From the NCBI RefSeq assembly GCF_058153355.1, contig NZ_CM177019.1: 64,000 nucleotides of DNA. One strand, given 5' to 3'. Position numbers and translations under genes: made by a program. Under the pieces are notes generated by a model, which was not told the DNA's origin, ran no database searches, and saw nothing but the letters and a program-made list of their open reading frames with translations. Shown here one piece after another: positions 28,914-35,536 of the stretch; positions within the stretch are counted from its first letter, which is position 1, and the number at the start of each line of letters is the position of its first letter.

Positions 28914-29038
28914 CTATTCAGCAGGATAATGAATACAGAGGGGCGAATTATCTCTTGGCCTCACTGGTCGTTATCCTGCAAGCTATCACTTTATTGGCTA
29001 CGGTGATTGGTAGCCGTTCTGGTGGTTGTGATGGTGGT

Positions 29039-30223
29039 ATGAAAAAAGTTATTTTATCTTTGGCTCTGGGCACGTTTGGTTTGGGAATGGCCGAATTTGG
29101 CATTATGGGCGTGCTTACGGAGCTGGCACATAACGTAGGTATTTCGATTCCTGCCGCCGGGCATATGATCTCGTATTATGCGCTGGGGGTGGTGGTCGGT
29201 GCACCAATCATCGCACTCTTTTCCAGCCGCTACTCGCTCAAACATATCTTGTTGTTTCTGGTGGCGTTGTGCGTTATTGGCAATGCCATGTTCACGCTCT
29301 CTTCGTCTTACCTGATGCTCGCCCTTGGTCGTCTGGTATCCGGTTTTCCGCATGGCGCTTTTTTTGGCGTCGGGGCGATTGTGTTATCGAAAATTATCAA
29401 ACCCGGCAAAGTCACCGCCGCCGTGGCGGGGATGGTTTCGGGGATGACAGTTGCCAATTTGCTGGGCATTCCGCTGGGGACGTATTTAAGTCAGGAGTTT
29501 AGCTGGCGTTACACCTTTTTATTGATCTCTGTGTTTAATATCGCGGTGATGGCATCGGTCTATTTTTGGGTGCCGGATATTCGCGACGAGGCGAAAGGAA
29601 AGCTGCGCGAACAATTTCACTTTTTGCGCAGCCCGGCCCCGTGGTTAATTTTCGCTGCCACGATGTTTGGCAACGCGGGTGTATTTGCCTGGTTCAGCTA
29701 CGTAAAGCCATACATGATGTTTATTTCCGGTTTTTCGGAAACGGCGATGACCTTTATTATGATGTTAGTTGGGCTGGGGATGGTGTTGGGGAATGTGCTA
29801 AGTGGCCGGATTTCAGGACGTTATTCACCACTACGCATTGCGGCAGTGACTGATTTCATTATTGTGCTGGCATTGCTGATGCTCTTTTTCTTCGGCGGCA
29901 TGAAAACAACGTCGCTTATTTTTGCTTTTATTTGTTGCGCGGGATTATTTGCCCTCTCTGCACCGCTGCAAATATTGTTACTGCAAAATGCCAAAGGTGG
30001 AGAATTATTAGGTGCCGCAGGTGGGCAAATAGCGTTTAACCTCGGTAGCGCCGTCGGCGCATATTGCGGAGGTATGATGCTGACGCTGGGGCTGACTTAT
30101 AATTACGTGGCGCTGCCTGCCGCCCTGCTCTCGTTTGCTGCGATGTCGTCGTTGCTGCTGTATGGTCGCTATAAGCGCCAGCAAGCGGCGGATAGTCCGA
30201 TGCTGGCGAAACCACTGGGATAG
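29039..30223 (+). CDS. araJ: MFS transporter AraJ
   Basis: ORF track 28955..30223; start refined to MKKVILSLALGTFGLGMAEFGIMGVLTELAH; 394 aa. Confidence 0.85.
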   Translation: MKKVILSLALGTFGLGMAEFGIMGVLTELAHNVGISIPAAGHMISYYALGVVVGAPIIALFSSRYSLKHILLFLVALCVIGNAMFTLSSSYLMLALGRLVSGFPHGAFFGVGAIVLSKIIKPGKVTAAVAGMVSGMTVANLLGIPLGTYLSQEFSWRYTFLLISVFNIAVMASVYFWVPDIRDEAKGKLREQFHFLRSPAPWLIFAATMFGNAGVFAWFSYVKPYMMFISGFSETAMTFIMMLVGLGMVLGNVLSGRISGRYSPLRIAAVTDFIIVLALLMLFFFGGMKTTSLIFAFICCAGLFALSAPLQILLLQNAKGGELLGAAGGQIAFNLGSAVGAYCGGMMLTLGLTYNYVALPAALLSFAAMSSLLLYGRYKRQQAADSPMLAKPLG

Positions 30224-30243
30224 GTTGCAGTCACTGCTTGTTG

Positions 30244-30330
30244 TCGGATGCGGCGCGAGCGTCTTATCCGACCTACGCGGGCTGCTCATTTTGTAGGCCT
30301 GATAAGACGCGGCAAGCGTCGCATCAGGCA
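30244..30330. repeat. REP elements downstream of araJ
   Basis: GTCGGATGCGGCG...CTTATCCGACCTAC and TAGGCCTGATAAGACGCG...CGCATCAGGC motifs. Confidence 0.7.
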
Positions 30331-30354
30331 TGATGCACCAATTGCCTGGTTTTT

Positions 30355-31263
30355 TTACTCTTGTGGCCATAACCACGCAGCGCCGCGTACGCCGCTGGAA
30401 TCACCATGTTTCGCCTTACGCACCGGCGTTTCACATTCGCCGCCGAAGACAAATTGTTTAATCAACTGCGGAACCGTTTGATATAAACGATCTACATTGC
30501 TCATCCCGCCCCCCAACACAATCACATCCGGATCGAGAATATTCACGACATGTGCCAGCGATTTTGCCAGCCGCAGCTCGTAACGACGCAATGCCAACTC
30601 CGCTACCGGATCGCTTTCTTCAACAAGGCGGATAATTTCACTACCTTTCAGCGCATGTCCGCTCAAACGATGATAATCCGTCGCAAATCCCGTACCCGAA
30701 ATAAAGGTTTCAATGCAGCCTTGTTTGCCGCAATAACAAGGGACTTCCTCGCGATAACGCAGTTCATCTTCGTCCATCCACGGTAGCGGATTGTGTCCCC
30801 ACTCGCCTGCCGTGCCATTGCCGCCGATATGCGCTCGACCATTGAACGCTACGCCCGCGCCGCATCCCGTGCCGATAATCACGGCAAATACCGTCTGCGC
30901 TCCCGCAGCTGCGCCATCTACCGCTTCCGAGACCGCCAGACAGTTGGCGTCATTTGCCAACCGCACTTCCCGTTGCAACCGCGCGCTTAAATCTTTATCA
31001 AATGGCTGACCGTTAAGCCAGGTTGAATTGGCATTTTTCACCACGCCAGTGTAAGGCGAAATCGAGCCTGGAATGCCCATGCCTACCGTTCCGCGCTGCC
31101 CTGTCGCCTGCTCCGCCATATCAACCAACGTGGCGATCGTTTCGATGGTCTGATGGTAATCATCACGCGGCGTGGGCAGACGATGACGATACAACTGCTC
31201 CCCTGCATCGCCCAGTGCAATCACTTCAGTTTTAGTGCCGCCTAAATCGATACCTATACGCAC
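30355..31263 (-). CDS. mak: Fructokinase (manno(fructo)kinase), ROK family
   Basis: ORF track 30355..31401; start refined to GTG giving [23 protein letters not shown]...; ROK motifs; about 302 aa. Confidence 0.85.
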
Positions 31264-31387
31264 GGTACTCTCCTTATTTTTTTCAATATCAATAGCGTAG
31301 AGACGGACAACCGGATTGGCAATGCAAGGCCGCCGACAATTCGTTATCATGCCCGCTAAATTTAACGACAAGGCCGTGGAAATTATC

Positions 31388-32299
31388 ATGCTGTGGTTCA
31401 AAAATTTAATGGTTTACCGTCTTAGCCGCGAGATTTCGCTGCGTGCAGAAGAGATGGAAAAACAGCTAGCCTCGATGGCATTTACCCCATGCGGCAGCCA
31501 GGACATGGCGAAGATGGGCTGGGTTCCTCCGATGGGATCGCACAGCGATGCGTTAACGCACGTTGCCAATGGTCAAATTGTTATCTGCGCACGCAAAGAA
31601 GAAAAAATCCTCCCGTCTCCGGTGATTAAACAGGCGCTGGAAGCAAAAATCGCCAAGCTGGAAGCGGAACAGGCGCGCAAGCTGAAGAAAACCGAAAAAG
31701 ATTCGCTGAAAGATGAAGTGCTGCACTCTCTTCTGCCGCGCGCTTTCAGCCGTTTCAGCCAAACCATGATGTGGATCGACACGGTAAACGGTTTGATTAT
31801 GGTGGACTGCGCCAGTGCCAAAAAAGCAGAAGATACGCTGGCATTACTGCGTAAAAGCCTGGGGTCGTTACCGGTTGTACCATTGAGCATGGAAAACCCG
31901 ATTGAACTGACGCTGACCGAATGGGTACGCTCTGGTAGTGCGGCACAAGGCTTCCAGCTGCTTGATGAAGCCGAACTGAAATCGTTGCTGGAAGATGGCG
32001 GCGTGATCCGCGCGAAGAAACAAGATTTGACCAGCGAAGAAATCACCAACCACATTGAAGCAGGAAAAGTGGTGACTAAACTGGCGCTCGACTGGCAGCA
32101 GCGCATTCAGTTTGTGATGTGCGACGATGGTTCACTCAAGCGTCTGAAGTTCTGCGACGAGCTGCGCGATCAAAACGAAGATATCGACCGTGAAGATTTT
32201 GCCCAACGTTTTGATGCCGATTTCATCCTGATGACCGGTGAACTGGCAGCATTAATCCAAAACCTGATCGAAGGATTAGGTGGCGAAGCACAACGTTAA
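31388..32299 (+). CDS. rdgC: Recombination-associated protein RdgC
   Basis: ORF track 31316..32299 (TTG-initiated frame); start refined to [31 protein letters not shown]...; 303 aa. Confidence 0.9.
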
Positions 32300-32318
32300 T
32301 TGCTGATTTGCCTTTAAT

Positions 32319-32353
32319 GCCGGATGCGACGCCTGCGGCGTCTTATCCGGCGT
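32319..32353. repeat. REP element downstream of rdgC
   Basis: GCCGGATGCGACGCCTGCGGCGTCTTATCCGGC palindromic unit. Confidence 0.7.
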
Positions 32354-32376
32354 ACGAATCCACACCAGGCATATAA

Positions 32377-32832
32377 TCATTCGCTACGGCGGGCAATAAT
32401 TTTTAGCGCAGCAATATTATGCGTTTTACGCCGTAACTGATCCAACCGTCTCATCCCTATTCGCCTGTCAGCGGCACGCAGAATATTCACTAACCCCCAT
32501 TTATCGCTGGTAAATTGTTTCGTTAACAGCTCCGCTTTTGGGGTATCAATATATTCACGCAATAAATCAGAAATTGAACAAATATCCGTCAGATAAGGAT
32601 ACCAGCAAGTTTCACCATGAAAATTACGCACTCCACCATTGCCTGCCATAAAGTCTTTTGGGTAATCCCAGATTACGTCTTTATCCAACGTGATCCAATA
32701 ACGTGGTAAATCGGTGCTTCCACCATTTTGGCTGCGCATGGGATAACGGGTACAGTGAATTTGCAGGTTGATCGTTGGCGTCAGTAAGTCATAAATCTCC
32801 CTCTGTAACTTGCTCCAGGGGCGTTGTGTCAT
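32377..32832 (-). CDS. Hypothetical protein (151 aa), downstream partner in a two-gene accessory module
   Basis: ORF track; start overlaps the stop of the upstream 762-aa ORF by 4 bp (translational coupling); no signal peptide; not recognised. Confidence 0.65.
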
Positions 32833-35117
32833 TGTTTTTCCTCAAGCCGGTTACGCGCTTCACTGCGAATTTGCCGCGTTGCCCCGGTTTTCACTAAATC
32901 ACGTAACTGCGAAAGATCGGGCTGATCGACAAATAAGATTAATGATGGATCCTCTTTTAACCACGCCGTTTTCACATCGGCAGCCAACTGTGGATTATTA
33001 ATAGCCAGCGCCCGATCCTGTGACTCAGTCAATGTCGTTAACAAAGAGGCTGGGGTATGTACATTGCGCAACGCCGTCTGCCGCAAATGATCATTGTGAC
33101 TTTTCAGCAATCCGCACCACCATTCATCATCTGATTTATCTTTTATCGTATCCAGCTCCGCAAAAATATCGCTTTCCTCATGATTCCAGCGGAGTAATCC
33201 TCTTTCACTTTGTCTACGGGTGCTATTTTTCATACTGACAACAGACAACGCCCAGTCGGAGTTAAAACGATACTGTTGATCGAGTTTGTTGATAATTCCG
33301 GAGGGTAAATCTTCATTATCAAATAGCTGGTTTCGCATCCGATAGCGGTATTCAGCAGGTAAATAAACCAGTAAATCGATGGCATTATTAAACATCTCTT
33401 CGTCAATAATACCATTATCAATCAGCGCCAGCTGTACTTCGTAGGCTTGCTCTTGATCTTCTTGCCGTTTACTCATCATTAATTTTAAGGTGTGTTGCCA
33501 TAATTGTTTCTTATACTCCAGAGGTAATAATTTATCGCGTGCCAGCTCATACCAGATGCTGGGAATGTCATGCTGATTCAGTAGATAACTAATCACTTCC
33601 TTCGAGGTCAGATAACGCATGCCGTCACGTAAGTTGTGCACATCTTCTTTTGCCAAAGTCAGTTGACGCGACTCCGGCAAAGCGACCAATAACGCCTTCA
33701 CGATATTTTTATTTTCTTTATTATCCAGATACATTTGTTCTGCGATACGTTCAACATCCTCTGTACTCAGGGTCGCTGACAGTTGGGTGATTTTTAGTTC
33801 AGTAAGCGTCCGGGCTAATGCTTGACGAACTTTCAGCGATTTATCTTTACTCAACAACACCGCTTGTTGTGCGGTTAAATCGGCTCCGGTAATTCTTTCG
33901 CGTAACTCCGGATCTTCGCTATTTATCAATTCATCAACCACTGCAGTTGGAACCAGCCAGGCGTAATCGTAATGGCTGATTAATGTCTTGCGCACACTGA
34001 GAAAAGGGCTTTGACTTAACGACACAACAATATCAGGAGAAAGATTATCCTGTCTGGCCTGCTCCAGCTGTATGCTCTCGACGGGTACAGACATTAATTT
34101 TTTATTCACTTCGGCGGATATATTGCTGTTTTTAACCAGTCCTCTGGCAACAGCTTCATCTTTAATTAATTCATCGGTAAGCAAATGCATGTGTTGAGCA
34201 GGCCAGGACTGCGCCATTGATTCACGCGTCTGGTCATCAGGGTGCTGTAACAATTGCAGCATAACAGCGGGTGACAAACGCTCTATATGTGTCAGAAAAC
34301 GTGCCATCAGTGGATCTTCATGCTTTATTTTATCCGCAGGGAAATTGTCGAGTTTACCCGCTTCAATCCACTGTAATTTCTCATTAATTTTAGAATCAGC
34401 TTTATCTCGAAAAACAGGTAACCCCTGAATTATATTATCTGCGACGCTATCATAGTCAGGATACGCATTAAAAATATTATCAGTTTCGATTTCAGTATGA
34501 TCGTAAAAGTCGGGATTCACCAGTGAATAGGCTTTCTTAATATTCTCATCCCAGCTATATCCTTCACCACTTGCATCTTCATTGATATAAAATTCAGCTT
34601 TGATGGACTCAAATTGCGTTGCTTTATCGGAAACAATAATTCCTCGTGCGCTAATTCCCTTCATCACTTCAAAATTATGATCATTATAATCAGCATAAAC
34701 TAAACCTTTTGCTGTCATCTGCCCTTTGACATACGCGAAATCATGATTAATAAAGTTATCGACAATAACATTACCTAGTACAATCAGATGACCATTACCT
34801 GACAGATAATCATCATAATCGCCGGAAATCGTTAAATTACCGTTCACCACCAGTTTATGCTGATTGCTGAAGTTAGTGGGTAATGATAGGTCACCATTAT
34901 GATAATACCAGCGGATATTATCTTTTAGCATATAAGCAGCTTCCATACTATCGTTGGTTGCCGCTTTAACCACGTTGCGCTCATCTGCCGTCATAAGATG
35001 AAAGTCAGAGGTGATAAGGTCCTCGCTACTGATCCACTCTGTGGCACATGCATTGCCAGTCATAAAAAATACGACCATACAGATGACCAATATATTAATT
35101 CTATTCATAATCTTCAC
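32829..35117 (-). CDS. Hypothetical exported protein (762 aa) with N-terminal signal peptide
   Basis: ORF track; N-terminus [25 protein letters not shown] is a Sec-type signal peptide with an A-x-A site; N-terminal Asn/Gly/Asp-rich region followed by a long helical region; not recognised; no such genes recalled between rdgC and ppnP in K-12. Confidence 0.7.
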
Positions 35118-35290
35118 TGATATTTATATCAACCTTGATGAATTATGAATATATCGGAAATCGAAAAAATCGCAGCAAAGGAAATATTATTATGGGTTAA
35201 AGAGAGGATATTTCAGAAAAATGCCCTCCCGTTCATGGGGAAGGCGAGGAATTACAGATAGCGGCACAGATAAGAGGTGGGTTCGGCAAC

Positions 35291-35536
35291 TTACAGATGA
35301 AACTCGCTGTGACCGGGAACATTAAACACCGAACCGGCTTCATACACTTGCCAGTCGGTCGCGTCAGGCAGTAACACATTCAGCGCACCACTGATTACCG
35401 TCATCTCTTCAGGCTCAGCGGTGCTGAAGGTGTATTCGCCTTCAACCATAACACCCACGCTGGCGCGGCCAGTGCTACTGCTGGAAAAGCCGATCGATTT
35501 CACTTTGCCGGAAAAGTACTCATTACTTTGAAGCAT
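35291..35536 (-). CDS. ppnP: Pyrimidine/purine nucleoside phosphorylase PpnP (YaiE), truncated by an in-frame TAA at codon 82
   Basis: 81-aa ORF ([37 protein letters not shown]...GHSEFHL*); the same frame continues after the TAA as VAEPTSYLCRYL*, which is the C-terminus I recall for the 94-aa protein. Confidence 0.8.

Follow-up and report, generated by a model that had tools for sequence, protein, structure and literature searches.

Escherichia coli K-12 ykiA and ykiD are deletion remnants of a two-gene accessory locus found intact between ppnP and rdgC

What does the interval between ppnP and rdgC encode in Escherichia coli when it is not reduced to the fragments annotated in K-12, and do its two genes work together? 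These questions are raised by a stretch of 64,000 nucleotides of contig NZ_CM177019.1 (NCBI RefSeq assembly GCF_058153355.1), hereafter the window, whose positions are used throughout. An earlier note, made from the sequence alone, had singled out two minus-strand genes at 32377 to 35117 as the best candidate in the window for an undescribed system, possibly a toxin/immunity pair or an exported enzyme with its chaperone. We found that the genes are the intact counterparts of K-12 ykiA and ykiD, both of which are deletion remnants. On balance, we lean towards regarding the window as carrying the intact ancestral ppnP-[ykiA-ykiD]-rdgC accessory operon, whose two proteins would act independently of each other.

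Two intact genes between ppnP and rdgC

The two open reading frames (ORFs) described in the earlier note were confirmed to be intact, co-oriented and overlapping in an ATGA arrangement. Their junction reads gaggaaaaacaATGAcac, with a GAGG Shine-Dalgarno sequence 7 nt upstream of the small-gene start.

32829..35117, minus strand: large ORF, 762 residues if the GTG start at 35117 is used
32829..35108, minus strand: intact ykiA (DUF2773/YdbD family), 759 residues from the ATG at 35108
32377..32832, minus strand: intact ancestral ykiD (SF0329 family), 151 residues, Arg-rich, cytoplasmic by sequence
32829..32832, minus strand: 4-bp ATGA stop/start overlap, read from the sequence as translational coupling

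Although a frame of 762 residues, the length first proposed, does exist from the GTG, the large protein most likely has 759 residues (MNRINIL...), because the GTG is not conserved (it is ATT in O157:H7), the ATG at 35108 is kept in O157 and in Escherichia sp. E4930, and the coding sequences in RefSeq are of 2,280 nt (L001, L002 and L105). RefSeq names the products in other E. coli 'DUF2773 domain-containing protein' and 'SF0329 family protein', and the genes are ECs_0442 and ECs_0443 in O157:H7 Sakai. The description of the pair as undescribed did not hold, as both proteins are named in Pfam/NCBIfam and annotated in RefSeq, and the large one has a K-12 paralog, YdbD.

K-12 ykiA and ykiD are deletion remnants

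The ppnP-rdgC interval of K-12 is short, as stated in the earlier note, and only the ykiA pseudogene (b0392) and ykiD (b4732) are annotated in it. Alignment by blastn against L003 revealed that K-12-type genomes retain window positions 32300-32438, 32803-33170 and 35110-35290, the lost parts being the following.

33171..35109, no strand: K-12-type deletion 1, about 1.94 kb, with the ATG and first ~646 codons of the large gene
32439..32802, no strand: K-12-type deletion 2, in-frame loss of SF0329 codons 12-135, creating ykiD

K-12 ykiA corresponds to the last 113 codons of the large gene, devoid of an in-frame start; it occupies the same site between the same flanks, and the remnant aligns with the window gene. 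The junction of the SF0329 deletion falls between the imperfect repeats AGTTACAG and AGTTACGG. The sequence of YkiD has been reported and the protein detected by epitope tagging (PMC6001520); it is a 27-residue fusion of SF0329 residues 1-11 and 136-151 and matches the predicted deletion product exactly. By annotation, the two remnants overlap by 4 nt (ykiA ends at 408950 and ykiD starts at 408947). These data establish that each K-12 gene is what a deletion has left, of the large gene in the case of ykiA and of the SF0329 gene in that of ykiD. The earlier note had asked whether ykiA is a remnant of either gene; it is a C-terminal scrap of the large one, with ykiD as the remnant of the small one. 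A reading of K-12 ykiA as an in-frame GTG fusion was rejected, the upstream GTG being out of frame with the remnant.

Distribution and repeated decay of the locus

The locus was counted in 5,426 complete E. coli genomes. The interior of the large gene was present in 446 and that of SF0329 in 920, consistent with the expectation that the module is absent from most E. coli; the large gene is dispensable in 92% of these genomes. The 446 carriers are mostly O157:H7 and O145 strains with a 92.5%-identical allele, and the window-type allele was found in 18 genomes.

Besides the double deletion of the K-12 type, the lesions comprise a 2.28-kb deletion of the large gene combined with a +1 C frameshift in SF0329 (L004, L103 and L104), and insertions of IS3 and IS1. 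In L001 the large gene is intact and SF0329 has a -1 frameshift, and in L105 the reading frame of SF0329 is shifted close to its 3′ end. The locus has been shown in this way to have decayed independently many times. The +1 C lies in a C-run at SF0329 codons 4-5 (CGCCCCTGG to CGCCCCCTGG; window ~32818-32822; L004:3078-3534, L103:1431-1887, L104:1431-1887). It was found in all three sampled E. coli that are devoid of the large gene, out of ~470 such genomes, and the shared insertion probably marks one lineage.

Either gene can be lost while the other is kept in other Escherichia.

Escherichia sp. E4930 (L012): large gene intact, 72% amino acid identity; SF0329 reduced to its last 20 codons
E. 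albertii: large gene reduced to its last 29 codons; SF0329 intact
Escherichia sp. MOD1-EC7003: large gene reduced to a 123-residue remnant; SF0329 intact

The ratio of nonsynonymous to synonymous substitution rates (dN/dS) of SF0329 was ~0.05 in E. albertii and MOD1-EC7003 despite the dead large gene, and an intact large gene without SF0329 was found in L012 at the same locus, in L009 at another site, and in five distant members of the family. A Logan contig from an enterobacterium (L010:323-5914) carries two tandem full-length YkiA paralogs (48% and 30% identity), SF0329, and an N-terminal remnant of a third paralog, an arrangement that indicates duplication and turnover at the ppnP-rdgC site.

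The large protein belongs to the family of K-12 YdbD

The large protein aligned by BLASTP with K-12 YdbD (b1407, 768 residues) at 29% identity (E 5e-87; residues 32-757 against 35-766) and is, judged from this alignment, a full-length paralog of YdbD. Its parts are as follows.

35043..35108, minus strand: Sec (signal peptidase I) signal peptide, from sequence reading and motif check, with no lipobox
34581..34907, minus strand: small beta-helix domain, residues 71-179 in the 762-residue numbering
32835..34337, minus strand: alpha-solenoid of LRV/HEAT-like repeats, residues 261-761
32832..33074, minus strand: DUF2773 match in Pfam (PF10971), residues 682-762, E 7.5e-39, full model

The signal peptide, which is the same whichever start codon is used, begins with a polar/basic n-region (MNRIN), continues into a hydrophobic core and closes with an A-C-A cleavage motif ahead of TEW, and the large protein is thus predicted to be exported to the periplasm. 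A hydrophobic signal-like N-terminus is also present in YdbD and in 29 of 45 full-length family members. The structure model (predicted local distance difference test score 94, predicted template modelling score 0.86, from a 60-sequence alignment) consists of a signal helix, a beta-helix, a linker and an alpha-solenoid. The model agrees with the earlier note, which had read from the sequence a Sec signal, an Asn/Gly/Asp-rich and possibly beta-rich N-terminal stretch, here the beta-helix, and a helical, repeat-like C-terminal region, here the solenoid. Most of the near-invariant residues of the family (G75, G93, L95, G99, Y101, D103, G109, V113 and G115) fall in the beta-helix, which superposes at 2.4-2.5 Å on the carbohydrate-binding, polysaccharide lyase (PL)-like beta-helices 4phb, 3lyc and 5nxk, a similarity at the fold level only. 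LRV, LRV_2 and HEAT_2 matches were generated in Pfam by family members, the query itself yielding only HEAT at E 9.9. The DUF2773 segment, which lies inside the K-12 ykiA remnant, is the sole part of the large protein recognised by Pfam as such.

The motif check found no lipobox, Walker A, HExxH or GxSxG in the large protein, the latter three as previously read. Pfam, structure comparison and motifs revealed no toxin, enzyme or T5/T6/T7/Rhs/LXG trafficking domain beyond the Sec signal, and no enzyme-fold match beyond generic beta-helix neighbours. For both proteins of the locus, PADLOC and PHROGs scans gave nothing significant and sequence searches of the Protein Data Bank (PDB) gave no match. 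An NCBIfam 'EstV lipase' match to the large protein was noise (E 0.024, 14 bits against a cut-off of 300), and Pfam PRESAN and MgtE_N matches were rejected as noise as well. Some records name the large protein 'protein involved in detoxification of methylglyoxal', which we take to be a transfer of the name from YdbD.

An exhaustive phmmer search for the large family gave 178 representative clusters, compared with only 8 in a word-indexed search; ~40 of the 178 are full-length (750-820 residues, 23-34% identity), and the N-terminal domain is also found alone and in other architectures. The seven large-family loci outside the ppnP-rdgC site (L009, L011 and L093-L097) have no conserved neighbour, and SF0329 is present in none of them. 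Between intact alleles, dN/dS was 0.13-0.25 for the large gene, indicating purifying selection, and 0.01-0.15 for the flanks; the ppnP figures were discarded because wrong ppnP coordinates had been used. No region of the large gene had an elevated value in this coarse comparison.

SF0329 is strongly conserved over distant phyla

The small protein matched the SF0329 model of NCBIfam (NF049912) over residues 6-148 with 93.9 bits against a cut-off of 60, matched Pfam PF25753 at E 5e-22, and kept 19 of the 19 invariant columns of the family. The earlier note was correct in that it has no signal peptide, the N-terminus being polar, but its statement that the protein has no recognisable motif is outdated. 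No solved structural relative of SF0329 was found. Its sole annotated structural neighbours in AFDB50 are DUF4304 proteins (E 2e-11 to 1e-9, template modelling score ~0.75, 31-32% identity).

SF0329 was found in 87 species in a scan of one genome per species, among them Pseudomonadota, Campylobacterota, Bacillota, Bacteroidota, Spirochaetota, Deferribacterota, Desulfobacterota, Cloacimonadota and others, and relatives over about ten phyla are ~45-70% identical in the best tblastn segment. There are ~550 homologs; among those listed, identity to the query ranges from 55 to 97% and is in most cases 55-68%. Between intact alleles of the ppnP-rdgC locus, dN/dS of SF0329 was 0.05-0.13. As there were no matches in 50,697 phage records and only two in plasmids, of which one was in a 1.2-Mb E. 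coli record labelled 'plasmid', SF0329 is not phage or plasmid cargo. Taken together, these data show that SF0329 is a strongly conserved, patchily distributed and mostly stand-alone gene.

Gene neighbourhoods of SF0329

Among 80 SF0329 loci from species-representative genomes, the hidden Markov model of the large family hit only the Escherichia locus. Neighbour clustering found no conserved SF0329 neighbour across phyla outside Campylobacter, and no toxin-like C-terminal domain was shared, beyond single genera, by the ORFs ending just upstream of SF0329 at 63 loci. The upstream gene in many Bacillota is a housekeeping gene (GltX, ArgD, QueA, Ada/Ogt or a histidine kinase). SF0329 lies in arrays of co-oriented small genes in Bacteroidales, Paenibacillus and Leminorella, where its neighbours include SUKH-1, DUF4240, leucine-rich repeat (LRR) proteins, DUF2314, which is Imm34 (Zhang et al. 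2012, PMC3482391), and an orphan Rhs-core cassette. An NCBIfam scan of the Bacteroidales array neighbours was mostly empty. This company is the only functional lead for SF0329, and an associative one.

In Campylobacter (~27 uncultured species represented by metagenome-assembled genomes, MAGs; L037-L077 and L090), SF0329 is vertically conserved in a fixed context, downstream of conserved proteins of 227 and 177 residues, and this is the only clade where it resembles stable core content. The 227-residue upstream neighbour was ruled out as an SF0329 paralog (hhalign probability 0.7%). An uncultured Bacilli MAG (L078:2162-3199) encodes an in-frame fusion of SF0329 with a KptA/Tpt1 RNA 2′-phosphotransferase (Pfam PTS_2-RNA, E 2.7e-43; SF0329, E 1.3e-17). 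Immediately upstream of SF0329 lies GltX in L026 and QueA in L080, and one ORF in the pooled neighbour scan, not assigned to a locus, matched RtcB. The KptA fusion, GltX, QueA and RtcB may reflect an RNA/tRNA theme or coincidence. An apparent N-terminal fusion in L024 was an ORF-caller artefact, the extension being of low complexity. On a Photobacterium plasmid (L101:4998-10420) and in a Bradymonadia locus (L007:1-5356), SF0329 adjoins defence-island-type genes, namely those for a DEAD/DEAH helicase with DUF1998 and for TerB with a BrxC/BrxD-like protein and a helicase.

Promoter region

35109..35251, minus strand: conserved upstream regulatory region, 97% identical to K-12
35223-35245, minus strand: predicted terminator-like hairpin of ppnP
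35213-35220, minus strand: match to the BglJ-RcsB core wwTTCykA (TTTTCTGA), putatively placed on these bases
35142-35147 and 35189-35194, minus strand: -10-like CATAAT boxes read from the sequence; an AT-rich leader is also in the region

One promoter-like site was predicted in the upstream region, which is conserved better than the coding region in E4930. Both ykiA and ynbA are among ten promoters activated by BglJ-RcsB (PMC3950696). The TTTTCTGA box lies ~80 nt upstream of the start expected from the CATAAT at 35142-35147 and is the putative BglJ-RcsB site. The paralog ydbD is up 3.9-fold on sigma-E induction (PMC2731931). K-12 ydbD is located immediately upstream of ynbABCD (L100:7145-14202); as ynbA and ykiA are both BglJ-RcsB-activated, both family members lie at loci under BglJ-RcsB control.

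Flanking sequences

The module is flanked by araJ, mak and rdgC on one side and by ppnP, aroM, yaiA, aroL and yaiI on the other. Its G+C content is 0.37-0.46 against ~0.50-0.57 in the flanks. ORFs and RefSeq annotation revealed no mobility genes within the ppnP-rdgC interval, and the repetitive extragenic palindromic (REP) element noted earlier on the rdgC side was also recovered.

32319..32351, no strand: REP element lying between the stop codons of SF0329 and rdgC, conserved in K-12

The REP element is an imperfect palindrome of the GCCGGATG...CATCCGGC type in an intergenic 3′ region; its arms of 15 nt each (32319-32333 and 32337-32351; GCCGGATGCGACGCC/GGCGTCTTATCCGGC) are 87% complementary and separated by a 3-nt loop. 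The Rfam match to the REP-derived naRNA4 was sub-threshold (27.6 bits against a gathering score of 59.5). A weak Rfam match to RAGATH-28 in the 3′ end of rdgC (window 32205-32289; 23.8 bits against 45.3, E 0.49) is most likely due to chance.

Codon 82 of ppnP in the window (35291-35293, minus strand) carries a private nonsense change, CAA to TAA (Q82*), with loss of the last 13 residues; the codon is CAA in K-12 and in L105, the strain closest in SF0329, where PpnP is full at 94 residues. Either a real mutation or an error of sequencing could account for it. The window flanks are 99.1% identical to several E. coli strains. The araJ-mak-rdgC flank (window 28955-32299) is 90-95% identical to 3,604 of the 5,426 complete genomes and at least 99% identical to 12, so that either the lineage of the window is an uncommon one or divergent alleles are present in this region.

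Do the two proteins act together?

In the reading that we favour, on balance, both genes would be transcribed together from the conserved BglJ-RcsB-activated promoter and be translationally coupled, and the two proteins would act independently in different compartments. The large protein would be a periplasmic binder devoid of enzymatic activity, serving as a scaffold or sequestering its partner, perhaps a glycan or protein of the envelope or else an effector that enters from outside and acts in the periplasm. SF0329 would be cytoplasmic, with a conserved Arg-rich surface suggestive of binding to one well-conserved macromolecule; an orphan-immunity-type protective role, suggested by the Bacteroidales and Paenibacillus arrays, is the leading guess. 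Neither protein would be a toxin, and neither would be needed to tolerate or mature the other.

Several observations weigh against independent action or against parts of this proposal. The ATGA coupling is kept in E. coli and, together with a linkage older than Escherichia, could point to a joint function instead of shared descent. The order ppnP-large-SF0329-rdgC recurs on two contigs from other enterobacteria (L102 and L010), where PpnP and RdgC share 82-89% identity with K-12 and the identities to the window are 29-48% for the large protein and 70-79% for SF0329. SF0329 is frameshifted in each of the three sampled E. coli without the large gene. As for immunity, the lead is weak, with no recurrent upstream toxin domain at the 63 loci and a mostly housekeeping context in Bacillota, and an immunity protein would not usually be expected to keep 45-70% identity between phyla, as SF0329 does. 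The coarse dN/dS analysis gave no sign of diversifying selection in the large gene.

A first alternative, which we consider somewhat unlikely, also separates the two proteins and takes the large one as a housekeeping-type envelope scaffold whose beta-helix binds peptidoglycan or an envelope polysaccharide during Rcs/sigma-E stress, with no role in conflict and with SF0329 as an unrelated passenger. The predicted periplasmic location, the superposition on carbohydrate-binding PL-like beta-helices, the activation of ykiA by BglJ-RcsB and the induction of ydbD by sigma-E are in keeping with it, but the link to carbohydrate is at the fold level only. A housekeeping role also fits poorly with a low-GC gene that 92% of complete E. 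coli genomes dispense with, and with the tandem duplication, paralog turnover and 29-48% identity between genera, compared with 82-89% for the flanking proteins.

That SF0329 is instead a dedicated cytoplasmic partner of the YkiA-type periplasmic protein, as its regulator, assembly factor or export factor, appears to us improbable. The overlap conserved among E. coli alleles, and equal in length in the K-12 remnants, speaks for such a partnership, as do the same order on the two other enterobacterial contigs despite the divergence of the large protein and the frameshifted SF0329 of the sampled large-less E. coli. As all of these linkages share one syntenic site, however, the enterobacterial cases count as a single historical juxtaposition. 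Elsewhere the genes are apart: 79 of 80 SF0329 loci carry no large-family gene, the seven large-family loci at other sites carry no SF0329, and YdbD has no SF0329 neighbour. SF0329 is also under strong purifying selection in E. albertii, which has no functional large gene, and the large gene is intact without a functional SF0329 in E4930 and L001. We nevertheless leave the partnership some weight, given a linkage older than Escherichia and a coupling that has been kept.

We hold it to be just as improbable that ppnP-rdgC is an ancient mini 'polyimmunity' islet, in which YkiA/YdbD proteins would form a new class of large periplasmic proteins that sequester effectors, as immunity proteins or decoys, and diversify by duplication and turnover, and SF0329 would be a cytoplasmic immunity- or repair-type protein of new fold directed against a highly conserved, possibly RNA-directed toxin. 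An RNA-directed toxin would fit the KptA/Tpt1 fusion and the tRNA/RNA-related neighbours (GltX, QueA and the RtcB match).

Against both proposals of the earlier note stands the fact that each gene is found intact without the other and that the two are never neighbours outside Enterobacteriaceae, and we give neither more than a very slight chance. For an exported toxin with SF0329 as its immunity protein speak only the coupled large-then-small arrangement and the strain-variable distribution, against a large protein that contains no toxin, enzyme or trafficking domain and ends in an alpha-solenoid, has no PADLOC match, remains intact where SF0329 is deleted (E4930, L012) or frameshifted (L001), and is predicted to reside in another compartment than SF0329. 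For an exported enzyme with a maturation factor or chaperone speaks the pairing of an exported large protein with a coupled small cytoplasmic one, against the lack of any catalytic motif or enzyme fold, the overwhelming occurrence of SF0329 (87 species, about ten phyla) without such a client, and the occurrence of YdbD and other family members without SF0329.

Significance

The earlier note had named homology of both proteins to a characterised family, and core-genome status of the interval, as findings that would speak against its reading. Neither was found, and the description as an uncharacterised accessory module therefore stands, with a much lower novelty. As a system the locus is ordinary, because both genes are catalogued and annotated and the pseudogene status of K-12 ykiA was on record. 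What is new lies in the interpretation. YkiD appears to derive from no dedicated small-protein gene but to be a scar left when a 151-residue gene suffered an in-frame deletion, a point that bears on how 'new small proteins' are read. DUF2773 is under-scoped, covering only the last ~80 residues of a ~760-residue beta-helix/solenoid family that includes YdbD and ~180 representative clusters, and both this family definition and the transfer of the 'methylglyoxal detoxification' name are misleading. The BglJ-RcsB activation of K-12 'ykiA' amounts to control of a dead gene, whose intact target is in O157:H7 and a few other lineages. The ppnP-rdgC interval is a fast-turnover enterobacterial site, and SF0329, strongly conserved over about ten phyla with no solved structural relative, is a reasonable target for function screens. 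None of these points amounts to a new kind of system.

Comparison with known systems

DUF4304, the structural neighbour of SF0329, is itself uncharacterised, and the query has no match to the DUF4304 model of Pfam. The beta-helix of the large protein resembles bactofilins (BacA; PDB 2n3d and 6ria) at the fold level only, with no match to the Pfam bactofilin model (DUF583); bactofilins are cytoplasmic, whereas the large protein is predicted to be exported and is fused to a 500-residue solenoid. Residues 261-761 share their fold with LRV/HEAT solenoids, matches to LRV, LRV_2 and HEAT_2 occurring in the family, but the large protein is predicted to be periplasmic and the query scores only the HEAT match given above.

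Polyimmunity loci (PMC3482391) resemble the module in their tightly packed co-oriented genes with no toxin between them, their variability among strains and, in L010, tandem paralogs; in other phyla, SF0329 is seen at some loci in arrays with SUKH-1, Imm34/DUF2314, DUF4240, LRR proteins and an Rhs cassette. The module differs from them in that neither family is recognised as immunity, a cognate toxin was not found, and most SF0329 genes are solitary beside housekeeping genes.

The closest comparisons are within E. coli itself. YdbD is colinear with the large protein over almost the full length, similar in size, and has an N-terminal signal peptide and a C-terminal DUF2773, but it is encoded at a different locus, pdxI-ydbD-ynbABCD, is devoid of the Y-D-D-Y stretch that is near-invariant in the beta-helix of the family, and has no SF0329 neighbour. 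YdbD is itself uncharacterised, the hints to its role being the description 'induced by methylglyoxal' and its rise on sigma-E induction. K-12 ykiA/YkiD share with the window the orthologous locus, the promoter region and a stop/start overlap of equal length, but of the large gene only the last 113 codons are left, and of SF0329 only the 27-residue YkiD. ECs_0442 and ECs_0443 of O157:H7 Sakai are the same two intact genes at the same site, but represent a different allele, with 93% nucleotide identity to the window over the 2,991-base interval (32300-35290) that takes in both genes and ~90% amino acid identity in the large protein.

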